From Candidatus Uhrbacteria bacterium RIFOXYB12_FULL_58_10 (GTDB taxonomy: Bacteria > Patescibacteriota > Patescibacteriia > UBA9934 > GWF2-40-263), in the NCBI GenBank assembly GCA_001791645.1, contig MGFA01000019.1:29774-93773 (forward strand): 64,000 nt of DNA, written 5' to 3'. Shown here piece after piece: positions 3,641 through 21,064 of this stretch. A model generated the notes under the pieces. That model was not told where the DNA came from and searched no databases. It worked only from the letters and a program-made list of their open reading frames with translations. The stretch's first letter is position 1. Each line of letters opens with the position of its first letter. The position numbers were made by a program, and so were the translations under genes.

Positions 3641-5431
3641 CTATTCGAGCGCGCGCATCAACGCGGACAATTTCATGAGCATCCAGCGGTCGGGGTTTTC
3701 CTCCGGGTTCCAAAACAACTCGGGAAACGCCTGGCGCACGGCCGCGACCAAGCCGTCTGGTGTCGGATGATCCCGGTAGAGCTCGCCGAATCGTTGGAGC
3801 GGCTTTCGGGCCGATTCGGGATCCCGGCGAAGAACGTCCGCGCCGCCTGTTTTTCCCAGACGATCCGCGTGGGAACGCAGAAAAACGAGAACCGCGTCCA
3901 CGTCGAGGGGATCGATCCCAGATTCCCGGATCAGTTCGGCGTACGCGCGCACGAAAACTTCGCGCTCGCGCGCAGATTCCGCCTCATGCTCGTATGTTTC
4001 GCGCAACGCCCCCTCGTACCGCTCACGGACGGCGTCGTCAAGCGTCGCCTCGACGAGCAACCGTTCCACGGCGCGGTCAATCGGAATGTCAGGGTGCATG
4101 CCTTTTAACTTCGCGTCGATGATTCCGCGCAGCTCGCGCAAACGAGCCGAGCTGTTCAAGTCGCCCATGTTCGCGCGGACGGCATCGACCACTTCCTGCA
4201 GCTCCTCGTCATCCAATAATTGGACCCCGTCGACGGTCGCCGCTTGGCGAAACGCCTCCTTGGACGCGGTTGGATCGCCTGCCAGCCGGGAGATGTCGCC
4301 GGCAAACTGCCGCTTGATAAAGATGACCGTCGGGTGTTCTACCAAACGGCCTTCGCCCTCAAGCGAATCCTTCAATCGCAGCCGCTCCTGGCCGTGGCCC
4401 GCGCTGAGAGCCGTCCGCGCGGAAAACCGGTCAAGCGGATGCGCGACCACGTCCGTCGCCACCGCGACCTTGCCGATGCCGGCGAGGCGAAACCCGAACG
4501 CGGGATCTTCTCCGCCGGCGAGCTTCGGAACGCCGCCGACAAGCGCGGCCTCAAACGCGCGGCTCGCCATATTGGCGCCCGAAAAATGAACGCGGGGCTC
4601 CTCCGCGGGAACGTCCTTGCGGTCCAGGACGTTCTTTCGCGCCTTCAGCGCCTTCGCCACCCACTGATAACGGGAAAACAACTCCGCCGTCGACGCCGCG
4701 CCGCCGAACATTTCCTTCACCTCGTCGGACAGTTCAAATTCTATTTTTCCAGAAATTCCAACCAAAGACGGGTCGCGCCCGAATGCCCGGACGAGGGACA
4801 GGATATAATTCGGCGGGAATCGCGTGTCCGCGTCGGATTGCGCGATGATGCCGTTCTTACGATGCTGTCCGTAAAACCGCTCCACCGCCTCGGCCACCCC
4901 TCGGTTGCGCGCGCCGCCCACGTTCGCTTCCTCCGGCGGGAGCGTGCGACCTTCGCCCGACTTGTCGACGACATGTACGCGCGTCCCGCGCGATCGAATT
5001 TCTTCAAGCTGCCCGCGCTCTTCGTCCGTTGCGTGCGAGGGCATCGGACCTCCATTCAAGAAGCGGAGGATCTCGATCGTCTGCGCGTTCTGCCACGTCG
5101 CCATCAGATACAGGTCGCGCTTGCGCGCCCAATCGTTCTCCGACTCGTCCAGCGTGCGAACGGGCTCGGACGGCGGGTTGTTCACGACGAAAATAACCTC
5201 GTACTCCTCGGGCTTCACGCCTTCTTGCCGCGCCAACGACAATAGCGGACGGAATATTCCCTCTCGTTCCGCATAGGCGGGAATCACGACGGATACCTCG
5301 CACCGCGAGTCCATCGGCGTCTCAATGCGCGTTTCCCCGCGAAGCGATTCCCGAAGATATTCCGTAATCCGCTTGCCACGCTCTTCCTCGCGCGCCGCGG
5401 CCTCGCGCGGGTCCAATTCCGTTTCTGTCAT
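3641..5431 (-). CDS. Family 2 glycosyltransferase with a helical C-terminal extension of about 300 aa and unknown function.
   Basis: VSVVIPAYAEREGI and the QSDADTRF (DxD) motif. Start placed at the MTETELD ATG (5431), which abuts the upstream stop at 5433. The ORF track extends it to 5473. Confidence 0.7.
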   Translation of the reverse strand: MTETELDPREAAAREEERGKRITEYLRESLRGETRIETPMDSRCEVSVVIPAYAEREGIFRPLLSLARQEGVKPEEYEVIFVVNNPPSEPVRTLDESENDWARKRDLYLMATWQNAQTIEILRFLNGGPMPSHATDEERGQLEEIRSRGTRVHVVDKSGEGRTLPPEEANVGGARNRGVAEAVERFYGQHRKNGIIAQSDADTRFPPNYILSLVRAFGRDPSLVGISGKIEFELSDEVKEMFGGAASTAELFSRYQWVAKALKARKNVLDRKDVPAEEPRVHFSGANMASRAFEAALVGGVPKLAGGEDPAFGFRLAGIGKVAVATDVVAHPLDRFSARTALSAGHGQERLRLKDSLEGEGRLVEHPTVIFIKRQFAGDISRLAGDPTASKEAFRQAATVDGVQLLDDEELQEVVDAVRANMGDLNSSARLRELRGIIDAKLKGMHPDIPIDRAVERLLVEATLDDAVRERYEGALRETYEHEAESAREREVFVRAYAELIRESGIDPLDVDAVLVFLRSHADRLGKTGGADVLRRDPESARKPLQRFGELYRDHPTPDGLVAAVRQAFPELFWNPEENPDRWMLMKLSALMRALE

Positions 5432-5432
5432 A

Positions 5433-5900
5433 TCAATCGATAAACCAGATTGGTTGATAATACTGGACGACAAGCCACATGCCGAAGCCGACGAGCAAAT
5501 GGGAGGCGAGCATTTCCAACCATACGCGATGCCCGGCGCGGCGGCCGAACGGTCCCATGCCGAGCGCGGGAAAGATCGTCAGTCCGCTCACGACCCAGCT
5601 GCCAACCGCAAAGACCACGAGTGACAGAAAGGTATATGGCGAATGCGTGACGAACAACCACCCCTTTTTTACGAACACCACGTACATGAGGCCAAACAGC
5701 GAGCCAACCACCAAATGCACGAGCAACGCGACAAGGAAAGTCTCATGACGGTCAAGCTTGCGTCCCCAGAGCGTCTTGATGTCCACGAGCAACGGGGCAT
5801 TCGGCACGCGCCAACGCTCCACCGCCTCGAGCACGATGGCCGGAATGGCAAAAAAGAGCGCGGTAAGACCTCCGATCGACGTTCCTAACAGGTAATCCAT
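5433..5900 (-). CDS. Hypothetical polytopic membrane protein.
   Basis: 155 aa with 4-5 hydrophobic helices and strong GC3 bias. No motif recognised. Confidence 0.6.
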   Translation of the reverse strand: MDYLLGTSIGGLTALFFAIPAIVLEAVERWRVPNAPLLVDIKTLWGRKLDRHETFLVALLVHLVVGSLFGLMYVVFVKKGWLFVTHSPYTFLSLVVFAVGSWVVSGLTIFPALGMGPFGRRAGHRVWLEMLASHLLVGFGMWLVVQYYQPIWFID

Positions 5901-5901
5901 A

Positions 5902-6792
5902 TCATTCCGGATATATCACAACAACCACCTTCGGGCCAGTTTCAATGGTATCAAAGGAGCCAGTCCAATCGTGCGTGGCGTCCATGACCGTATTGATGTC
6001 GTACACGTATCCCTCGCCTCGGCGCGTGCCGGGGTCGTTCGCGATGAACTGCGTTTCCGTATAACCGCGAATCACGATCATGTGATACGGCGGGCCGTCG
6101 CCGCTAAAGTTTGGGTTGTGAAGCAAACGACCGGCGGTAGGAACGATCACCGGATGGCCCGCGGCCACGTGGTTCTTGATATCCTCGACGGTCAGGTCGT
6201 TCTCCGTTTGCGCGTGTAGGCCGTATGCCTTCGCGACCAACTGCGCAGTCTCAACGGCGGTCGTGTCCTGGTAATATCCGAATAAATCGTTCTCGATCGC
6301 CACCAAACGCTGGAGCTCATTTTCCGCCACCTGCGAATCAATGACGCCTTGCACTCCGAGATAATACGCGGCGACCATGTACGCGGCGGCTTCCTCGCAC
6401 GTCTCCTCGTGCAACGCGTCCCAGTTGGCGAACGGGGCTTGCGAGGTAAACGGAACGGCGAGATTGTATGAAGCGGGGATGTCGGATACGGTCGGCAAAA
6501 CGACGGGCGGTTCTTCGTTTGCCGTTTTCGCGGGGACGTCCGCAACGGGCTCGGGAATTTCCGGCGCGTCCGGAATAGTCCGTTCATCCGATTCCGTCGC
6601 GGGCTTCTCAGCCTGCTGCGCGGCGTCCGCGTAGGAAACGGCCTCTGGCAACTCCGGCGCGCTCGCCTCTCGAGCCAAATCCGCGATGCGCACGCGCTGC
6701 GTATACATTGCGGTTGCGAGCGCGATCACAAAGATGATCGCGCCGACAGATCGACGAATATGGTATTTCATAAGACGGGAACGGTGTTTCAA
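5902..6792 (-). CDS. Membrane-anchored Peptidase_C39-like (C39_2) domain protein.
   Basis: N-terminal TM helix, a Pro/Glu-rich linker, then NLAVPFTSQAPFANWDALHEETCEEAAAYMVAAYY, typical of the C39_2 papain-like fold. Confidence 0.7.
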   Translation of the reverse strand: MKHRSRLMKYHIRRSVGAIIFVIALATAMYTQRVRIADLAREASAPELPEAVSYADAAQQAEKPATESDERTIPDAPEIPEPVADVPAKTANEEPPVVLPTVSDIPASYNLAVPFTSQAPFANWDALHEETCEEAAAYMVAAYYLGVQGVIDSQVAENELQRLVAIENDLFGYYQDTTAVETAQLVAKAYGLHAQTENDLTVEDIKNHVAAGHPVIVPTAGRLLHNPNFSGDGPPYHMIVIRGYTETQFIANDPGTRRGEGYVYDINTVMDATHDWTGSFDTIETGPKVVVVIYPE

Positions 6793-6805
6793 AATCGTTC
6801 GGACA

Positions 6806-8200
6806 TCATACGGTGTGCTTTTCTAACCACTCTTTCACGATGTGCGTCGCGCGAACGTCGTCCTCGTTGTACGCCAGAATCTTGTCGAGCGTCTTCTTGT
6901 CCTTCTTTTTCAACCAGGACTCGAACCACAGCACCGAATTCGCGCCTGACGCGTCCTCGCTCCGCCAAGAAAACCCGACGTACGCGGCAATGTCCTTCAA
7001 CGAATAGAAGGTGAGCGGAAAGATGACCGAGGCCCGAATGACCTCCATGATGTCGACCATGTTGCGCTCGAATGCCTCGCGCGCGATGTCCGAGCATCCA
7101 TATTTCGCGGCAAACCGGTTGACCACCTCGCGCTCGAACCAGCCGTAGTGATAGATCGGCGCGTCAAGATGGCTTTCGACGAACGTCACAAACTCAGCCC
7201 ATGCCTTCCCTTCATCTTCCGGTTTCTTGGCGAGAAAGGCATGATATGCCTCCTTCCCGTTTTTGACCGTCATCGCGCCGAACAAATAGTCGAAGTCGCG
7301 CAGCGGGTCGGACTCGATGTCGAAGTACACCTCGATGGCCGCCTTTGGAAATCGCGCCGGGCCGCGCACGATGTGGTGGTTGTCGCGAATCGCGATGGCC
7401 TGGTCGCGGAGCATTTCCATGCGGCCGTGATTAATGTCCGGACACATGCGCAGGAGGTCGTGCACGGACCGCGCCGCGAGCGCGTCAATGGTGCGGATGC
7501 CCGCCGCGTCGAGCCTCAACACCTCTTCGTTCCACACGCGGTTGAGCACGGACAGCTCGTTGCATGCCTCGGATTCGCGACGACACTCCGAAAACCATGG
7601 CGACTGCTTGCACGCGCTGGTCACGAAATGCACGGGGCGCTTTCCGGCCACGATCGCCTCGATTTCGTCGAGCGTGAGCTTGTACTGGGCCTCGAACTCA
7701 TTGACGAGATACGCGAGCGCGTCGCCGTCCGGAGTGATGACGTATCCCTGCGTGGGTTTCGTCCCCTGAATCTTTGAAAGCAACTCAGCGTAAAAGCACC
7801 CTTGGAACTTGAACTCATCCCGCACCTCGCGCGAGCGCTTGATGTCCGCGGCAACGTAATAGTAGGAACCGAGACGCGACGAGCCCTCCACGCGCGCGAG
7901 GATGTCCGGATGTCCCACCCAATGTTTGTCGATAAGCACGCCGCGATATATGGTTTCCCGCCCCTCGCGCATGAACGCGAGCGTCTGGCGAAACGCTTCG
8001 TCCGGATCCTCGGCATCGACCTCGGCCAAATCAGGCCGATCGGAAATAGCGCGCTGTTTTACGTCGTCCATAAGCCCGTCCTGCATCAGCCGGAGAAGCA
8101 ACGGGTCGTGAGGCTTTTCCTCGATCGTATGCGCATCAAAATACACCCAATTCGGGCACTTGATGAACTGATAAAACGTGGTTTCGGTAATTTGTCGCAT
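6806..8200 (-). CDS. TM0106-family RecB-like nuclease: PD-(D/E)XK/Cas4-like N-terminal domain plus RNase H-like C-terminal domain.
   Basis: MRQITETTFYQFIKCPNWVYFD... and YFDIESDP (DEDD-like). Real start is the ATG at 8200-8198. The ORF-track extension to 9370 is an R-rich artefact. Confidence 0.75.
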   Translation of the reverse strand: MRQITETTFYQFIKCPNWVYFDAHTIEEKPHDPLLLRLMQDGLMDDVKQRAISDRPDLAEVDAEDPDEAFRQTLAFMREGRETIYRGVLIDKHWVGHPDILARVEGSSRLGSYYYVAADIKRSREVRDEFKFQGCFYAELLSKIQGTKPTQGYVITPDGDALAYLVNEFEAQYKLTLDEIEAIVAGKRPVHFVTSACKQSPWFSECRRESEACNELSVLNRVWNEEVLRLDAAGIRTIDALAARSVHDLLRMCPDINHGRMEMLRDQAIAIRDNHHIVRGPARFPKAAIEVYFDIESDPLRDFDYLFGAMTVKNGKEAYHAFLAKKPEDEGKAWAEFVTFVESHLDAPIYHYGWFEREVVNRFAAKYGCSDIAREAFERNMVDIMEVIRASVIFPLTFYSLKDIAAYVGFSWRSEDASGANSVLWFESWLKKKDKKTLDKILAYNEDDVRATHIVKEWLEKHTV

Positions 8201-8258
8201 GTAGGGAAAGTATAGCAAAAAAACGTTCCGGGCGTTAGACGGGCGGTCCGACCAGCGG

Positions 8259-8287
8259 TTGACACTTGCGTTCGAATGTGGTATCTT
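8259..8287 (+). promoter_or_regulatory. Sigma70-like promoter: TTGACA, 17-nt spacer, TGg-TATCTT.
   Basis: Canonical -35 at 8259-8264 and -10 at 8282-8287. SD aagga lies 8 nt before the ATG at 8333. Confidence 0.55.
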
Positions 8288-8332
8288 TCCACTCCGTTCA
8301 TTGAAAGAAAATCCCCCCACCAAGGAAAACAC

Positions 8333-9196
8333 ATGGAACCGATCCCCCCCCTTACCGCTGGGGAGAATCTCACCACCAACCTTCGCCTCGCGGAGTTCGC
8401 GCAGGGAGCGAGACTGCGCCGATACGAGGCGCGAGAACACATCGCTCTCGACCTCGCCGTAAGCGCGGCCGTGTTCGCGGGCTGGTGGATCGTCGCCGCG
8501 CTCCTCGCGGTGGTGCTCCAGGGCCAGGTCGCGAACGGCCTGATCGTCGCCGGACTGGCCCAAAGTCTGGCCGGGATCATGATGGCGGCGTTCGCCATCG
8601 CGTTCCCTGGGGCCGTCTCGTCGGTGAGCGGGAAAGCAAGGTTTCCGTTCCTCCCCCAGCGCGGCGAAAACGCCAGGGACAAAACGGTGGGTGTCCTCAC
8701 CGTCGCGCTGTTCGGCCCCCTGTTCGCGGCATGCTCGGCGGCATGCGGGTTGTCGGTTGCCAATGGCAACCCGCAAACGGAATTCGGGTATGCCGAACAG
8801 ACGGTCAGGATGGAGTCCATCCTGAACGACGACCGGACCGCCACCGTTTTTTTGCCGCTCGCGCAGCAGATCAGGGACTGGGAGCGAGCGCGACTGGCGG
8901 CGAACCGGCTCATCGCCTTCGCGGAGGCCGGAACGTCCCTCTCCGAGGAAGAAGGGGCCGAAGTTGCCGCGTGCACGGTCGCGCGGGGTGGGCTCATGGT
9001 CCTCATCCGGATCGCGGAGGCACTCTCGATGGAGGGACCCCTCGGAACCACAGAGCAGGGTCTTCTTCCGGAGAGGGATCCTGTCAGTGCGGTCGATGGA
9101 CTCTCCCAAACGCGCAAGCACGTGGAGAGTCTGCGGGAAGACGCCTGGCAGCGGGCGCGCGCCGCCGCCGAGGTGAGCGACAAGCAGAAGACCTGA
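8333..9196 (+). CDS. Hypothetical membrane protein (287 aa, GC-rich).
   Basis: MEPIPPLTAGEN..., 2-3 TM helices, very strong GC3 bias. Own promoter and terminator. The antisense ORF 8086..9219 is spurious. Confidence 0.65.
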   Translation: MEPIPPLTAGENLTTNLRLAEFAQGARLRRYEAREHIALDLAVSAAVFAGWWIVAALLAVVLQGQVANGLIVAGLAQSLAGIMMAAFAIAFPGAVSSVSGKARFPFLPQRGENARDKTVGVLTVALFGPLFAACSAACGLSVANGNPQTEFGYAEQTVRMESILNDDRTATVFLPLAQQIRDWERARLAANRLIAFAEAGTSLSEEEGAEVAACTVARGGLMVLIRIAEALSMEGPLGTTEQGLLPERDPVSAVDGLSQTRKHVESLREDAWQRARAAAEVSDKQKT

Positions 9197-9199
9197 CCT

Positions 9200-9226
9200 G
9201 AGACGGGCCACCGTCTCATTTTTTAT
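9200..9226 (+). terminator. Rho-independent terminator: GAGACGG-gcca-CCGTCTC followed by ATTTTTTAT.
   Basis: Perfect 7-bp GC stem followed by a T-tract. Lies between convergent genes. Confidence 0.6.
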
Positions 9227-9879
9227 TCCGGCAAATAGTCTGCCGGCTCGTATACGTTGCGGGCGTTCCAGAGCATCCAGCCGCTCGCGTGCGCGTCGCG
9301 GGCCGCCTGGATTTGCGCCTCGATGAGATCGGCCGTGTACACCGCGCCAATGTCGAAGTCCTGGATCCACGGACGAAACTTCGGGGTAATCTCCGCGTCT
9401 GGAAGACCGAAGTTCGAGGCGACGATGCCAAGCCCGGTCACAAGGGAATGCGTGACAACCTCGTACGGATACAACGCCGGGTTCGCGTATCCCTGAAACC
9501 CGGAGGCATAATGCGACGGGTACACCATGGGCGAGATGAAATCCGCGTTCGGAAACACGTCGACCAGGCGTTGGCCGATTCCGAAGTCATTGCCCGTCTC
9601 AAAGGTCATGCCGAACAGGTCGAACGACACGGGAATCCCGTTTGCGCGCATGACGCCACCAACGGTTTCAAAAAATCGCGCCATCACTTCGGTCTTCGTC
9701 TCCACGCTGTCATACACCGAATATCGGATCGACGAAAGCGCGCCGTCGGACGCGAACCGCACGTAATCGAACTGCACCTCGTCGAATCCGCGCGCGTACG
9801 CCTTGCGGCCAAGCGCAATCGCCTCCTCCGCGACCACGGGCGCGACGATCGCGTCATCGACCCACCCCCCCCCGCCCAT
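9223..9879 (-). CDS. DUF4015-like (glycoside-hydrolase-like TIM barrel) protein. Its 5' end appears frameshifted at a C9 tract from an upstream signal-peptide ORF.
   Basis: WVDDAIVAP...GFDEVQFDYVRF... Internal ATG at 9879. Upstream ORF fragment 9880-9949 encodes MWAKRGLLLIAVPAFLVLTTVGMYGRGG in another frame. Confidence 0.6.
   Translation of the reverse strand: MGGGGWVDDAIVAPVVAEEAIALGRKAYARGFDEVQFDYVRFASDGALSSIRYSVYDSVETKTEVMARFFETVGGVMRANGIPVSFDLFGMTFETGNDFGIGQRLVDVFPNADFISPMVYPSHYASGFQGYANPALYPYEVVTHSLVTGLGIVASNFGLPDAEITPKFRPWIQDFDIGAVYTADLIEAQIQAARDAHASGWMLWNARNVYEPADYLPE
9865..9873. repeat. C9 (minus-strand G9) homopolymer tract at the frameshift point.
   Basis: Read directly from the sequence. 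Removing 1 nt, or adding 2, fuses the signal peptide to the DUF4015-like domain. Confidence 0.9.
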
Positions 9880-9950
9880 ACATCCCAACGGTCGTCAGAA
9901 CCAAAAACGCAGGCACCGCAATCAGCAGGAGCCCGCGTTTCGCCCACATA

Positions 9951-10550
9951 TTATTTCGTATTATCCTCAACCGTCACCTCAAGCATCTTGTCACCGACCG
10001 CAATTGCGTCAACGACGTCCATTCCTTCCAGCACCCGTCCAAAAATCGAGTAGCTCTTTGGCAGCGGATTGTCAGCCAGCATGATGAAAAACTGCGATCC
10101 GTTGGTATTTGATCCGGAATTGGCCATGGCAACGATCCCGCGGTCATACGCGTATTCGTCGTTGAGCTCGTCGGCGAACTTGTATCCCGGACCGCCGGTT
10201 CCCGTCCCGCGCGGATCACCGCCTTGAATCACGAACCCTTCCACGCGACGATGAAACGTCAGGCCGTCGTAATATCCCTCCTTGGTGAGATACACGAAAT
10301 TCGAGACCGTATTCGGCGCGGTATCGGCGAACAATTCGAACAGGATGTCACCTTTTTCCGTGTGCAGGCGCACGCGCTTGTTCTGAATTTCTTCCAAGGG
10401 CAAAACGCCCGGGAACGCGTACGATGATTCTTCGGCCATAATTCCAGTGGTTCCCTCGACGACCTTCGCTTCCGGAACGGACGACGCACAACCGCCGCCG
10501 AGCAAAACGAGCGAGAGGACGACAGGGATCAAATAAGAGATGCGCGGCAT
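9951..10550 (-). CDS. ppiB: Cyclophilin-type peptidyl-prolyl cis-trans isomerase, lipoprotein.
   Basis: Signal peptide plus lipobox LLGGGC. Cyclophilin motifs HRRVEGFVIQGGDP and SQFFIML. Confidence 0.85.
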   Translation of the reverse strand: MPRISYLIPVVLSLVLLGGGCASSVPEAKVVEGTTGIMAEESSYAFPGVLPLEEIQNKRVRLHTEKGDILFELFADTAPNTVSNFVYLTKEGYYDGLTFHRRVEGFVIQGGDPRGTGTGGPGYKFADELNDEYAYDRGIVAMANSGSNTNGSQFFIMLADNPLPKSYSIFGRVLEGMDVVDAIAVGDKMLEVTVEDNTK

Positions 10551-11496: not shown

Positions 11497-12540
11497 TTAT
11501 TTTACTGTTTCTTCCCAAGAGAATCCAGGGCGACCGAAATGTCCGTAGGATGCGGTCTGGCGATAGATCGGCCGAAGCAGGTCGAATCGCTCGACGATTG
11601 CGTCCGGACGAAAGTCGAATTGTGCCTTCACGAGGTTCGCATAATCCATCTTGCTCCCGCGCGATTTCTCCGAGACTCCCGACGCCTCGAGGTGCACGGG
11701 CTCGGCACGACCCGGCGCGTACGCCGCGGTCACGAGCGCGGAGGACGCAAGCCCCTGCTCCACGAGCCACCGGGCCGCGGCGCGCGCCGCGTACAACCCC
11801 GCGCGCTTGGCACATCCGGGATCCCTTCCGGAAATGGACGCGTCGCCGTGCGGAATCAGCCCGCCATACGTGTCCGAGGCGAGCTTGTTCCCACTCATGC
11901 CCGATGACGCGGCGAACCCGGCGTGCACGAACGCCCCATTCGGATTGACATGCAGCTGCACGCCGTCCTCGCCGACCATCGGGGAAACGACGCGCTCGAG
12001 AATCGCGGTACGCACGTCGTTGAGCGCGATGTTTTGCGCGTGCGCGACCTGGATCGTCACGCACGTAACGCGATCGCGCTCGGCCACCACCTGCACCTTG
12101 CCGTTTGGCAACAACCAGGAAAACGATGGGTCCGTGCGACGCAGGTCGTCGAGGCGGCGGGCCATGTTGTTCGCGAACACAAACGCGCGCGGGAGCATCT
12201 CGCGCGTTTCCTTCGTGGCATACCCGTTCACGACCGCTGCGTCCGCGGGCACGCGAGCTCCCCGCAAAGGTTCGTCGGCCACGTTCACATTGACGAACAC
12301 CTCCGCTTCGTCCGCGTATCCCGTATCCGCATACGCCTGCTTGACGAGCGCCGCCACGTCAAAGTCCGCCCTTGACCGCACCTCTCCGCCCACCACGATC
12401 ATTCCGCGCGACCCGAGCACGCCCACATTCACGCGCGCCGCCGGATCACGACGCAAATACTCGTCCACGATCGCATCCGCGATCTGATCGCACACTTTGT
12501 CCGGATGTCCCTGCGTCACGGCCTCGGCAGCTTTGCGCAT
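11497..12540 (-). CDS. metK: S-adenosylmethionine synthetase.
   Basis: GHPDKVCDQIADAIVD and ASYGHFGR motifs. Start placed at the MRKAAEAV ATG (12540). The upstream extension is AT-rich leader. Confidence 0.85.
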   Translation of the reverse strand: MRKAAEAVTQGHPDKVCDQIADAIVDEYLRRDPAARVNVGVLGSRGMIVVGGEVRSRADFDVAALVKQAYADTGYADEAEVFVNVNVADEPLRGARVPADAAVVNGYATKETREMLPRAFVFANNMARRLDDLRRTDPSFSWLLPNGKVQVVAERDRVTCVTIQVAHAQNIALNDVRTAILERVVSPMVGEDGVQLHVNPNGAFVHAGFAASSGMSGNKLASDTYGGLIPHGDASISGRDPGCAKRAGLYAARAAARWLVEQGLASSALVTAAYAPGRAEPVHLEASGVSEKSRGSKMDYANLVKAQFDFRPDAIVERFDLLRPIYRQTASYGHFGRPGFSWEETVK

Positions 12541-12663: not shown

Positions 12664-13278
12664 ATGAGCCTCACAAAGAAACAAGCTGAAATCCTTGCCT
12701 TCATCAAGGAACATATCGCGGACAAGGACTACGCGCCGAGCTATCGGGAAATCGCCGAGCACTTTGGTCTCTCTTCCCCGGCGACCGTACACCAGCACGT
12801 ACAGGCGCTCGCGGAAAAAGGAATGGTCTCGCTCGGCGAAGACGGAACCGCGCGCTCCATTGAGCTCATTGAAAAACAACCGCTCGACCCGTTCTCCATC
12901 ATGCTGCCGCTTGCCGGGCTCATCACCGCCGGCGTGCCAATCGAGGCAATCGAGGAAAATGAAACGATCGCGGTTCCGGCGCAGTTCGTCGTCGACGGCC
13001 TGAACTCGTACGTACTGCGCGTCAAAGGCCAGTCCATGATCGACGACGGCATTTTCGACGGCGATTACGTCGTCGTCGAACGAAACCCTTCCCCACGCAA
13101 CGGCGAGGTGGTCGTGGCGCTGCTCGACAATGCCTACGCGACGCTCAAGCGCTTCTACCGCGAACCGAACCGCATCCGCCTGCAACCGGCCAACTCCACC
13201 ATGTCTCCCATCTTCGTGAAGGACTGCATCATCCAAGGGACGGTGCGCGCGGTCATCCGAAAGTTTCAAACGGCATAA
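12664..13278 (+). CDS. lexA: LexA repressor.
   Basis: N-terminal wHTH (FIKEHIADKDYAPSYREIAEHFGL). C-terminal S24 peptidase with Ser (GQSMIDDGI) and Lys (TLKRF). Confidence 0.9.
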   Translation: MSLTKKQAEILAFIKEHIADKDYAPSYREIAEHFGLSSPATVHQHVQALAEKGMVSLGEDGTARSIELIEKQPLDPFSIMLPLAGLITAGVPIEAIEENETIAVPAQFVVDGLNSYVLRVKGQSMIDDGIFDGDYVVVERNPSPRNGEVVVALLDNAYATLKRFYREPNRIRLQPANSTMSPIFVKDCIIQGTVRAVIRKFQTA

Positions 13279-13562
13279 GACAACCTGACCATTTGGAATC
13301 TGTCGACGAGGCGCGAAGGGATCACGCGCGTCGTCGCCAGGTTTCAGATTGCCAAAATTAATTCGTAACGCATGATCCCAAAACCGATATGCCGAGCACA
13401 ACCCTCCGTCACCATGCGTTCACCTTCGCGTACCTTCCGGTTCGTCGCGTCCGGCGTTTCGAATCCGCGGTACGTGCCGTCCGCCTTCGCATAAGCTCCC
13501 GTCGAATCAAGGAAGTCATCCGCTCCACGCTCGCCGCCTCCTGGCCCAACAACACCTAATCT

Positions 13563-13814
13563 ATGGCACACGAAGTTATTAACGAGCCCGTGGACATGCT
13601 CGTCGCGTTCCGCGAAAATCGCGTCATCCCCAAGCGCATGATGTGGAACGCGCGCGAGTACGAAATCAAGTCCGTAAATCTCGTCCACACGGCCCGCGAA
13701 GGAACAAAACGCGTGTTCTACTTTTCCGTCTCAGACCTCACTAACTATTTCAAACTGAAACTCGATCCGGAGTTTCTCGAATGGCGCCTCATCGAGACGT
13801 ATACTGACGGATAA
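13563..13814 (+). CDS. Hypothetical 83-aa protein immediately upstream of dinB. Possible YolD-like/UmuD-analog accessory factor.
   Basis: Co-oriented with, and 25 nt from, the DNA polymerase IV gene, downstream of lexA. The YolD assignment rests on position only. Confidence 0.5.
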   Translation: MAHEVINEPVDMLVAFRENRVIPKRMMWNAREYEIKSVNLVHTAREGTKRVFYFSVSDLTNYFKLKLDPEFLEWRLIETYTDG

Positions 13815-13839
13815 TTTCCACATGCATGATCCCGCTTCT

Positions 13840-14870
13840 ATGAGCAGGATCATTTTGCATATCGACATGAACTCGTATTTCGCCTCCGTGGAGCAGCAGG
13901 CGAATCCTTTTTTGCGCGGGAAGGCGATCGGCGTGACCGGCAAGCGCACGGAACGCTCCGTGGTCGCGGCCGCGTCGCGCGAGGCAAAGAAACTTGGGGT
14001 GCGAACGGCCATGTCCACGTGGGAGGCGAAGCGCGTTCTTCCATCCATGATTCTCGTCATGGGCGATCCGGAAAAATATAGCGACATCACGCGGCGCTTC
14101 AATGCAATTTTTTTTGAGTTCACGCACCTCGTCGAGCGATTCAGCGTTGATGAAAGTTTCCTGGATATCACCGATTCGGCCCGTGACTTTCTAGGCGCGA
14201 CGATCATCGCGCAGACAATCAAGACACGGTTGCGCGAGGAATGCGGCGGGTACGTCACCTGTTCTGTCGGCATTGCCTCAAACAAGCCCATGGCAAAACT
14301 TGCCTCGGATCGCATGAAGCCGGACGGCCTCGTCGTCGTGTTGCCCGGACGCGAAACAGAGCTGCTCGACGCGTCCAGGCTCGAGGACGTGTGCGGCATC
14401 GGCCCGCGCATGGCCGTGCGCCTGAACGCGCTTGGCATTTTTTCGTTTCCGCAACTGCGCGCGTACCCGCTTGACCGCCTTGTCGGGGAGTTCAAGTCCT
14501 ATGCCCTTCGGCTGCATGATATCGCGCACGGACGCGGCGACGCCACGGTCTCGCCGGGCGAGGTTGACCCGAAATCTGTTGGACATTCGTACACGCTTCC
14601 GACGAACGTCAAAGATCCGCCCGTCATCCGACGGTATCTGCTTACCCTGTGCGACAAGGTTGCGTGGAGACTTCGCCGAGACGGCTTTGCGACGCGCTGC
14701 GTGACGGCATATGTGCGCTATGGAGATTTCTCCGGAGAATGTCTTCCGTTCTTTCCGCGCTCGACGCCTTGCAAACGCGTTATGGCGACCGCGCCTGGAC
14801 TCGCGCCTCACTCATTCGCACAAACGTTCTCGCCCGCACGAGCGGCTTCCGATACGACCATGAGCTCTGA
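13840..14870 (+). CDS. dinB: DNA polymerase IV (Y family), interrupted by an apparent frameshift at about 14736-14755. The C-terminal 45 aa are in the -1/+2 frame.
   Basis: MSRIILHIDMNSYFASVEQQANP and Y-family palm, thumb and little-finger motifs through ...VRYGDFSGE. The conserved C-terminal tail LSALDALQTRYGDRAWTRASLI is encoded in another frame (ORF 14649..14870). Confidence 0.7.
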
Positions 14871-14924
14871 AATCAAAATGACGGAATTCCTACATTCTTC
14901 ATTTTGCATTCCCCATTTTGCACT

Positions 14925-15503
14925 TCACTCAAACTCCCCTTCCAGCACATGCCGCGACGGATCGGGATTTCCATCCTTCGATTCGACGGTCACGACGATC
15001 TGCGTATACGCGTCATACTTCCCCGCTCCTGAGTCTGTCGAAGCGGACCATTCGAGCACCCACTCGCCAACGTCATTCGTCACGAAATCGCCAACGGAAA
15101 AATAATCGTATGGAACCTGGCGAAGCAACCAGGCCTCATACGCGTACGTCTCTCGATCAACATCAGGAAGGCTGGCCTTGATGGACAGGAAAAACTGCCC
15201 GCCATCGGTCTCTCGTTCCGCATTTGCGAACGACGAACCGCCTTTCGGATCGTGCAACGTCGCCTCGTTGGACGTGCCTTCCGCCGCCGCGATCACCGCG
15301 GATGCGACGGGCGTCGGGGTAAGCACGTCGACGATGGTATCCGAGGTGGACGCCGACGGCTCATTCTTCGGGGCGAACCGGAACCACCAAATGCCATAGG
15401 CGAACAACCCCGCAAGGACAGCGACGATGCCGAGCGTTCCGAAAACCGTGCCATACGGAACGGAACGCGGACGCCTGGAACGAAAGGACGAGCGTTGATA
15501 CAT
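14925..15503 (-). CDS. Hypothetical N-terminally anchored extracytoplasmic protein (192 aa).
   Basis: Start MYQRSS at 15503 abuts the malic-enzyme stop. One TM helix, then a Thr/Ser linker and beta-rich domain. The ORF-track extension is spurious. Confidence 0.55.
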   Translation of the reverse strand: MYQRSSFRSRRPRSVPYGTVFGTLGIVAVLAGLFAYGIWWFRFAPKNEPSASTSDTIVDVLTPTPVASAVIAAAEGTSNEATLHDPKGGSSFANAERETDGGQFFLSIKASLPDVDRETYAYEAWLLRQVPYDYFSVGDFVTNDVGEWVLEWSASTDSGAGKYDAYTQIVVTVESKDGNPDPSRHVLEGEFE

Positions 15504-19716: not shown

Positions 19717-19837
19717 GGTCCCTCCGTTCGTGAATCGCGTGGATGCGGCGACGCTACCAGAAAAACCGGCTCGCGTCAACCAATACGTGTCGAAAAGAAA
19801 AAGGCCCCGGGCGAGGCTTGAAAGCCAGGCCGCGGGG

Positions 19838-21064
19838 TCAGTTGACGGACGAGCCGTCGAGATACAGGTCCGAGGCGTCGGCGAGCGCGTCGTAGGCCGC
19901 CCGCGCGTCGAACGCGTCCTCGAGCCCGATCTGCTTGGCGTCCGCGAGGGCGCGAAGCAGATCGTCCAGAAAGCCGGAACGAGAAGGTTCCGCGAGCTGC
20001 GCGAGTGCGACCTCGTTGCAGGCTCGATCTGCGGCGGCCGCGTACTCGCGGCGCTCCTTGGCCTTGATCGGCCGCTTGAACCGCCGCACCATGCCCGCGG
20101 TGACGAGCATCTGTGCGATCTGGCGGTGGATGAGCAGCTTTCCGACCGAACGCCGCGCGGCCATGAGCAACGGGAGCGCGGCACGAAATCTCTCTCTGTC
20201 GTTGAGCGCGACGACGAACGCGTCGAGCTCATCGCGAAGCTGAGCGAGGAGCGGCATTTGCGCGTAAGGCGCCGCGGTGATGAGCGTGAGCTCGTCACTC
20301 GTCCGCGCCGCGCGCTCGGCCAGGCGCTTGGCCTGCGCGAGCTGAAGCGGACGCTTGCGGCCCGGCTTCCACCACCGCGTCATGGAGGCAAGCTCCACGT
20401 CGCAGTCATGGAGACACTTCCAGATGCTCGCGAGCAGCCGGACGATGGCAACCCGCGAGCGGCTGACGCGCTCATCGGCGTTGAGTGCGATACGAAGCTG
20501 CTTGTCAAGCTGCACCGCGGCGCCCCAGTTGGCCATCGCGGCCGCCATGGGGTTGCGCTGCCCCCGCTTGTCGCGCTCGAACTTCGCGCGCGTGGCGTCC
20601 GAGACGGCCCTGCGCTTTCGTTCGCCAGTACTTCCGGTGTTGCGCTCGATCAGGCGATCGAGCCTCCGGACCCGCCTGCGGACCAGCTCCGGGTCGGTGA
20701 GATCGTCGCTGTCGTGCACCGCGTCGAGCGCCCAACGCGCGTCGTTGCGGAACACGCGCAGATCCGGGATCGCTCCGTCGTAGTAGGTGTCGGCGTACAT
20801 CTCGCCGCGGTCGGCGTGCAGCACGCTTCTGTAGATGACGCCGACCGGAAGCGTCTCATGCGACCCTTGGGTCAGCACGATTGCCGCTCCTGGTGGCACG
20901 CTCTCATGCGCGCCCACGTGAGTGTATAGCACGCCTGGCTCGTTGACATCGACGTCGAGGCGCAGCACGCCGAGCTCGGTGGAGTAGAACAGCAGCGACG
21001 CGTGAGCGCGTCCGCGAACCGGACGGCCATCCGTCGCATACGTATGAGTCAGTGGGTTTTCCAA
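19838..21064 (-). CDS. Hypothetical protein ORF-A (408 aa): beta-rich N-terminal ~110 aa, then an Arg-rich helical region. No recognisable domain.
   Basis: TTG start at 21064 preceded by AAGGAGG with a 4-nt spacer and an in-frame stop just upstream. GC about 72-75%. The antisense ORF 18863..20929 is low-complexity junk. Confidence 0.55.
   Translation of the reverse strand: MENPLTHTYATDGRPVRGRAHASLLFYSTELGVLRLDVDVNEPGVLYTHVGAHESVPPGAAIVLTQGSHETLPVGVIYRSVLHADRGEMYADTYYDGAIPDLRVFRNDARWALDAVHDSDDLTDPELVRRRVRRLDRLIERNTGSTGERKRRAVSDATRAKFERDKRGQRNPMAAAMANWGAAVQLDKQLRIALNADERVSRSRVAIVRLLASIWKCLHDCDVELASMTRWWKPGRKRPLQLAQAKRLAERAARTSDELTLITAAPYAQMPLLAQLRDELDAFVVALNDRERFRAALPLLMAARRSVGKLLIHRQIAQMLVTAGMVRRFKRPIKAKERREYAAAADRACNEVALAQLAEPSRSGFLDDLLRALADAKQIGLEDAFDARAAYDALADASDLYLDGSSVN

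Follow-up and report, generated by a model that had tools for sequence, protein, structure and literature searches.

Within the window, by which we mean the whole 64,000-nt stretch of DNA analyzed here, a ppiB-like cyclophilin gene on the minus strand is followed by a short ORF for a membrane anchor, a poly-G tract, and an ORF for part of a DUF4015 protein (Table 1). The original prediction had described an ATG tightly coupled to the ppiB stop, a run of nine C, and a DUF4015 ORF continuing in another frame, and a reading of the minus strand agrees with it in each respect: the ppiB TAA lies at 9953-9951, with the anchor ATG at 9949 only one base (t) further on; the plus-strand C9 is a G9 in the sense of these genes; and the second ORF begins MGGGGWVDD. 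The spacing of stop and start suggests that the anchor ORF may be translationally coupled to ppiB. The same arrangement is found at orthologous loci, and the gene order is common to two loci with intact genes (L001 and L096) and to L093, from a sister species.

The anchor is strongly hydrophobic (Kyte-Doolittle mean of 2.44 across LLLIAVPAFLVLTTVG) and is orthologous to the N-terminal transmembrane anchor of full-length DUF4015 proteins, such as MRWKRGLLLLAAPVFLILGAIGYG in P0002. Homology of the second ORF to its orthologs begins at the TGG at 9864-9862, equivalent to W162 of P0002, and the exact remnant protein of the window is present on three public contigs. When other tract lengths were simulated, G8 gave a 241-aa fusion and G11 a 242-aa one, so that removing one G or adding two does restore a single ORF, as had been predicted; G9 gives the 31-aa peptide, and G7 gives an 87-aa product of anchor plus junk.

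Table 1. Position of the poly-G tract and other features within the window
Feature	Position	Strand	Description
ppiB-like cyclophilin gene	9951..10550	-	199 aa; Pfam PF00160, E 1.7e-42
Anchor ORF (G9 allele)	9854..9949	-	31 aa, MWAKRGLLLIAVPAFLVLTTVGMYGRGGVGR; stop at 9856-9854
Poly-G tract	9865..9873	-	G9 in the window; exactly at the internal-deletion junction
DUF4015 remnant ORF	9223..9879	-	218 aa from the ATG at 9879; PF13200
Convergent neighbor gene	8333..9196	+	Predicted membrane protein, 287 aa
C8 run of the neighbor gene	8344-8351	+	Codons 4-6 (MEPIPPL)
C6 run	8313-8318		Just upstream of the RBS of the neighbor gene
854-aa ORF (rejected)	6806-9370	-	Spurious upstream extension of a 464-aa PF13482 (RNase_H_2-like) gene
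LexA/Y-family polymerase cassette	~12664-15100		LexA repressor gene, small ORF, Y-family (IMS/DinB-UmuC type) polymerase gene; beside metK

Judged by dinucleotide-preserving shuffles, runs of at least eight C are not rare in the window: 1.81 are expected, three overlapping matches are observed, and 31 of 100 shuffles reach that number. Against the window's own spectrum of G/C runs (193, 45, 4, 0, 1, and 1 for lengths 4 to 9), the C9 and the C8 of the convergent neighbor gene are outliers, being the sole runs above 6. Of all G/C runs of at least 6, which number six, three fall inside 1.55 kb (P of about 0.03).

The membrane-protein family to which this neighbor belongs is amplified in tandem in related species, with the window member 24 to 35% identical. 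L001 has five tandem paralogs of ~290 aa (4763-9910), and L093 has two or three. In the latter, a C9 on the minus strand (7704-7712) follows the stop of one paralog and precedes the ribosome-binding site (GAGGA) of the next; this run is intergenic and has no effect on frame. The 854-aa ORF that overlaps the neighbor gene on the opposite strand was rejected; the real start of the PF13482 gene (MRQITETTFYQF) is near 8200, and it is the spurious extension that produces the overlap. Elsewhere in the window, the LexA/Y-family polymerase cassette, which is conserved in the sister species, is possibly an SOS-mutagenesis module in a genome of the Candidate Phyla Radiation (CPR).

Tract length among sibling strains

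The 90% protein cluster around the window protein holds four forms. P0121 (241 aa; OGM00040.1, from Uhrbacteria RIFOXYC12_FULL_57_11) has a G8 tract and is exactly the predicted fusion. P0122 and P0001 (240 aa; OGL97705.1, from RIFOXYB2_FULL_57_15) have a G7 tract and are the same product save for the first residue, which is M in P0122 instead of V. P0123 (218 aa; OGL94874.1, from RIFOXYB12_FULL_58_10) is the G9 form of the window. Among the sibling contigs, which were taken from NCBI, ENA, JGI, and Logan assemblies, G8 was found on eight, G7 on five plus P0001, and G9 on three plus the window, and all of them share the internal deletion described below. Scans of a further collection of metagenome contigs, which lacks these contigs, gave no matches to the flanks of the tract with either a variable or a fixed gap, although the pattern did recognize the sibling loci.

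When the window was aligned with 10 sibling loci over ~19.7 kb, there were 17 substitution sites and one N run, and the single indel was the tract. Extending the comparison to 24 loci, with 61,017 of the 64,000 positions covered, gave 28 SNP positions and, again, exactly one indel site, the tract. Across these 24 loci, no variation was seen in 24 other homopolymers of at least 7 nt, among them a T9 and the adjacent C8. The C8 of the neighbor gene served as an internal control for tract variability, and neither it nor the C6 near it showed any length variation in at least nine sibling contigs. Set against 28 substitutions in 61 kb, the two changes of tract length described below would, as a rough estimate, give the poly-G tract a per-site mutability thousands of times that of an average base.

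G7 is linked to five private SNPs (974, 971, 968, 392, and 378) and G9 to two (13056 and 12807), and the G8 haplotype L006 has none of these at covered sites and carries one private 4-nt variant. This puts G8 at the center of a star tree, and stepwise parsimony accordingly assigns G8 to the internal node and calls for two single-step changes. For each tract length there are about three consensus sequences that differ slightly from one another. As far as the consensus sequences show, tract length is congruent with the SNP haplotypes, with two changes on the genealogy and no homoplasy, and this speaks against a very rapid switch. Two sibling scaffolds, L008 (at the equivalent of window ~19785-19926) and L003 (beyond window position 1), have ends that diverge completely from all other contigs, which suggests different joins or chimeric scaffold ends.

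The source study sampled one well at four time points in an oxygen-injection series, with serial 1.2-, 0.2-, and 0.1-µm filters, and assembled each of 33 samples separately from Illumina HiSeq 2000 2x150 reads (PMC5079060). From the names of the metagenome-assembled genomes (MAGs), we infer that G7 (B2) and G9 (B12) come from a single time point, each from its own size fraction, and that G8 (C12) comes from the next one. If the name codes do stand for time point plus filter, the G7 strain came from the 0.2-µm filter and the G9 strain from the 1.2-µm filter of the same water. Such a split may reflect a partitioning of co-existing strains according to their association with particles or a host.

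The internal deletion and a truncation in a sister species

The window gene and its fused form match PF13200 with 172.9 bits (cut-off 27; E of 1.2e-50) over profile positions 118 to 313 of 313. Even the repaired fusion therefore lacks the first third of the DUF4015 domain (profile 1-117), and the anchor is in frame with the rest in the G8 allele only. Homologs are proteins of 366 to 400 aa with the full domain, from Candidatus Uhrbacteria and other Patescibacteria, and the intact orthologs carry an in-frame anchor or lipoprotein signal, as the original prediction would have it. The closest full-length ortholog, P0002 (376 aa, 84% identity), has the same anchor as the window gene, and its locus shares the metK-small-small-ppiB-DUF4015 synteny with the window. 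In P0002, ~137 codons lie between the anchor and AAWLDPAAPEVVENAIAIGREAYARGFDEVQFDY; the window gene resumes there with WVDDAIVAPVVAEEAIALGRKAYARGFDEVQFDY, having lost about 411 nt internally. A search of 5.8 billion protein clusters turned up no intact copy above 84% identity, and a scan of species-representative genomes, which did not return the window's own species, gave none above 76%.

What the deletion removes is highly conserved. In an alignment of 37 orthologs, the missing segment holds 38 columns that are at least 90% conserved, and the lost elements include EVRGIYWT, LNxVVIDxKMDNG (LNxVVIDxKxDxG), YRIARIAVMRD (YRIARxxVMRD), W154, D156, and G159. An AlphaFold2 model of P0002 (mean pLDDT of 86.8) has a transmembrane helix at residues 2-26, a disordered linker at 27-62, and then a (beta/alpha)8 barrel, of which beta1 (66-71), beta2 (95-101), and beta3 (124-130) fall within the segment deleted in the window. 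On this model, the remnant keeps beta4 to beta8, with the linker and beta1/alpha1 through beta3/alpha3 gone, a loss of over a third of the enzyme domain. Foldseek neighbors of the barrel are glycoside-hydrolase-type TIM barrels (Cthe_0052 4s1a, the C-terminal domain of PgaB, Cwp19, SleL, GH36, and GH191). The literature searched describes no characterized DUF4015 activity, leaving this a family without an experimentally defined one.

Several other origins for the short gene were considered and rejected. A split gene with its N-terminal part elsewhere would require a match that the window does not offer (tblastn of P0002 residues 25-162, best E of 0.06). An assembly collapse is contradicted by the presence of the same junction in the window and in all fetched sibling contigs (L003 to L012); the junction recurs across four assembly pipelines and at least three samples. 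Nor does a conserved short DUF4015 architecture exist among the homologs: P0073, P0075, and P0112, which start at an internal MRDGA and are without an anchor, appear to be partial calls; P0006 and P0016 are anchorless only through mis-called starts, since an anchor or lipobox lies in frame in each; and a contig end truncates P0017.

Orthologous intact genes have no tract at this position. Distant orthologs do encode a GGG-x-W-x-D motif as G7 or G8, inside the segment that is deleted in the window, and the window 9-mer GGGCGGGGG equals ortholog nt 447-455, the AGGG motif within that segment. This match is a lead on how the tract may have originated rather than proof of it; a reconstruction of the G run by a single event fitted poorly.

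In the sister species (L093, L094, and L095; P0007, same synteny), the DUF4015 gene is also truncated, with the break directly after the anchor. L093 keeps a ppiB-coupled anchor, MSWKCGLLLVAVPAFLILTAWGY, and after it comes a tandem array of a 19-nt unit, GGGCTACGAATCTACGAAT, in 3.9 copies (L093 5984-6058, also in L094 and L095; TRF score of 136). The domain resumes at YVRFASDG (residue 193 of P0002), with everything from beta1 through the beta4 motif missing; beyond what the window remnant has lost, that of L093 is without the invariant GFDEVQFD motif. The domain is offset from the anchor by 79 nt (1 mod 3), so that the two are out of frame as assembled; three or six copies of the unit would put the anchor in frame. 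A single copy number of the array was seen, in two samples. For ppiB and the C-terminal part of DUF4015, respectively, the window shares more identity with the intact L001 (82% and 85%) than with L093 (79% and 82%), from which it follows that the truncations arose independently.

L093 further contains a MITE-like element of ~265 nt, in two copies in inverted orientation (~6640-6900 and ~12170-12450), whose ends are terminal inverted repeats of ~48 nt built from 8-mers (ACAGATGT and TACGGATC). One copy lies directly downstream of the truncated DUF4015 gene, and the terminal 8-mers resemble the 19-mer unit; the element is absent from the window.

The intact relative L096 has an in-frame 18-nt repeat in two copies (VTNDEW VTNDEW, ~2930-2990) in the linker that follows the anchor. 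Since even an intact linker bears repeats, we take this region to be intrinsically repeat-rich and slippage-prone, and judging from the sequences compared, it is plausible that the post-anchor linker is a recurrent breakpoint of the DUF4015 gene.

What is left of the gene does not look decayed. The window remnant has 215 codons without a stop and, of 98 conserved columns, departs from the consensus in two (P165D, which lies at the junction, and G351H), compared to a mean of 1.6 (SD of 1.5) for intact orthologs. Pairwise dN/dS against L001 is 0.135 for the remnant, 0.175 for metK, 0.118 for ppiB, and 0.095 for the RNase_H_2-like gene. In three-taxon comparisons, the terminal-branch omega is 0.09 to 0.12 for the window remnant and 0.14 to 0.19 for the L093 remnant; on the same branches it is 0.10 to 0.16 for ppiB and about 0.19 for metK. 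Relaxed selection on the remaining sequence was thus not detected, the omega of the remnants being equal to that of their neighbors. With omega this low, either the truncations span at most a few percent of the terminal branches, or the remnants are still constrained.

Readings of the variable tract

We think that this locus probably represents a recent decay of the DUF4015 gene at a slippage-prone linker, followed by neutral drift of the tract at the junction. The gene belongs to one population of Candidatus Uhrbacteria (Patescibacteria/CPR) in the Rifle aquifer, and DUF4015 is a membrane-anchored protein with a TIM barrel of the glycoside-hydrolase type. Through an internal deletion of about 411 nt, the N-terminal anchor has come to lie directly before the last five beta/alpha units, with a poly-G run that the event either spared or generated where the two parts meet. 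G/C runs of 7 to 9 are intrinsically prone to replication slippage, and because the product would already be crippled by the deletion, changes in length may be tolerated, so that co-existing strains carry G7, G8, or G9. Of these, G8 alone holds anchor and remnant in one frame, and the G9 of the window yields a 31-aa anchor peptide and an unanchored remnant ORF. The polymorphism of the tract, its specificity, and the deletion with all that it removes are established by the comparisons above; a non-functional remnant, and neutral drift by slipped-strand mispairing as the cause of the length changes, are what we infer.

In support of decay, a single in-frame allele among three is what neutrality predicts in the absence of selection on frame, the sister species has suffered an independent second truncation of the gene, and the invariant C8 of the intact neighbor, together with the lineage-stable alleles, fits an ordinary instability of homopolymers where frameshifts are tolerated. 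Features of a pseudogene are present, with conserved sequence lost in all alleles and the frame disrupted in G9 and G7, although not in G8. The main evidence against decay is the low omega: as the remnants show no visible decay, both truncations would have to be very recent on this reading. The low omega does not overturn it, since pseudogenes in bacteria are, as a rule, young. Two other considerations count against decay. Both of the independent truncations keep the anchor, a conserved C-terminal ORF, and a junction repeat that is not a multiple of three, a pattern that selection would also fit, and the tract sits just after the export signal, exactly as in classical contingency loci.

One can also envision that the G8 form is a shortened but working protein and that G7 and G9 are loss-of-function alleles, each having arisen once in one of two strains and possibly under selection. 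One-way inactivation of this kind agrees with the position of G8 as the hub haplotype, with G7 and G9 on their own SNP-marked branches, with the low omega of the remnant, and with a deletion that is in frame in the G8 form. It requires, however, that five-eighths of a barrel be functional, against the same structural objections as are raised below for a switch, and the present data fit neutral decay alike. We therefore regard it as unlikely.

One of the two explanations in the original prediction was a slipped-strand switch that toggles the export of a surface glycoside-hydrolase-like protein. Part of this has held up: the tract does vary in length, and the predicted fusion exists in nature as the G8 form (P0121). 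The functional toggle has not, at least as stated, given that the gene is a deletion derivative and that the lengths are stable within haplotypes. A true contingency locus, in which the G tract would switch the membrane-anchored expression of a still-useful surface protein at high frequency, accordingly seems to us quite improbable. It is equally doubtful that G8 and G11 serve as ON states and G7, G9, and G10 as OFF states that yield phenotypic heterogeneity in the population, and we give as little credence to a product acting as, for example, a glycan-binding or partner-dependent fragment.

There are nevertheless several observations that such a locus would explain. The tract is mutable and alternates in and out of frame, with G7, G8, and G9 among near-identical genomes and only G8 in frame; it is long enough and lies just after the anchor; three adjacent lengths, the ON form included, occurred in one aquifer well within weeks; and it is the sole indel within 61 kb. 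The remnant is constrained as much as its housekeeping neighbors, the sister species is convergent in that the copy number of a 19-nt repeat would toggle its frame too, and in both species further long G/C runs lie beside adjacent membrane-protein paralogs.

Against these stand the structure of the product and the behavior of the alleles. The ON product is without beta1 to beta3 and 38 conserved columns, so that, going by the model, it is probably not functional, although the low omega leaves some doubt; the L093 remnant lacks GFDEVQFD as well, so the two remnants are not equivalent. Tract length follows the SNP haplotypes, with 2 changes versus 28 SNPs and no scrambling within lineages, and the 19-mer array has one copy number in two samples. 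Three of the four alleles observed across the two species are OFF, and intact orthologs are without a tract here. No multi-tract set (phasome) is seen within the 64 kb examined, where the neighbor's C8 and all 24 homopolymers of at least 7 nt are invariant, and phase variation through simple sequence repeats in CPR/Patescibacteria was not found in the literature searched.

There is a slim chance that two related Uhrbacteria species have convergently built a repeat-controlled frame switch at the junction of anchor and shortened DUF4015 domain, using poly-G in one and the 19-nt array in the other. If so, this would be the first simple-sequence-repeat contingency locus in the CPR, switching in situ in a single aquifer well. 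Phase variation of the tract, if true, would likewise show for the first time that a CPR surface protein can be phase-variable through a repeat, and it would bear on cell-surface variation by these episymbionts.

The other explanation offered by the original prediction, a homopolymer sequencing or assembly error with one true length and a window frameshift that is a consensus artifact, is very hard to sustain: Illumina sequencing is error-prone on G9 runs, and coverage was presumably only about 10-15x, if the MAG names follow the usual convention, but each length recurs across IDBA-UD scaffolds, MEGAHIT k141, Logan, and JGI assemblies in several distinct consensus sequences, the lengths co-segregate with SNP haplotypes and deviate in opposite directions (7 and 9), and no other homopolymer, T9 and C8 included, differs in 61 kb. 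It is just as far-fetched that programmed recoding, by RNA-polymerase slippage or ribosomal frameshifting, restores the fusion from G9 or G7 templates, so that a frameshift in the DNA would not mean OFF; transcriptional slippage can occur on long homopolymers, but G/C runs are less documented for it than A/T runs, neither a stimulatory structure nor a conserved slippery heptamer is apparent, and recoding is not required, since an in-frame DNA allele exists.

The frameshift is best taken as genuine strain-level variation and not as a consensus error, and the MAG should not be silently corrected. The proteins annotated as "DUF4015 domain-containing protein" under OGM00040.1, OGL97705.1, and OGL94874.1 are truncated derivatives and not normal family members. 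The locus also provides a clean natural mutational hierarchy in an uncultured CPR population, in which a tract of 7 to 9 G changed twice against 28 SNP sites and no other indel, and it draws attention to the repeat-rich linker after the DUF4015 anchor as a likely site of repeated breakage.

Comparison with known systems

As a member of the DUF4015/PF13200 putative glycoside hydrolases, the window gene is recognizable by its 200 retained residues, which account for the 172.9 bits, and by the synteny and anchor that it shares with its orthologs. The motifs kept in the remnant are GFDEVQFDYVRF, SPMVYPSHY, RPWIQDFDIGAVYT, RDAxASGW, and WNARNVY. Unlike other members of the family, it is without profile positions 1-117.

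The locus resembles the contingency loci of Campylobacter, Neisseria, Haemophilus, and Helicobacter in having a poly-G/C tract of 7 to 9 nt in the 5′ coding region, just after the export signal. As in such homopolymeric-tract loci, a change of one nucleotide in either direction shifts the frame, and ON and OFF lengths are found among close relatives in one habitat. It differs from the loci of those genera in that the gene is internally deleted, with three of eight barrel units missing, and in that tract length, known here from consensus sequences, is stable within SNP haplotypes and not mixed. No description of contingency loci in the CPR was found in the literature searched.

The locus is also unlike the young pseudogenes of host-associated bacteria and reduced genomes in two ways: one of the natural alleles, G8, remains an undisrupted in-frame ORF that includes the anchor, and the terminal-branch omega is without relaxation. 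In other respects it is like them. Conserved sequence has been lost and the frame is broken at a homopolymer, the remnant still looks conserved, as it would after a recent event, and the same gene has been disrupted independently in a sister lineage.
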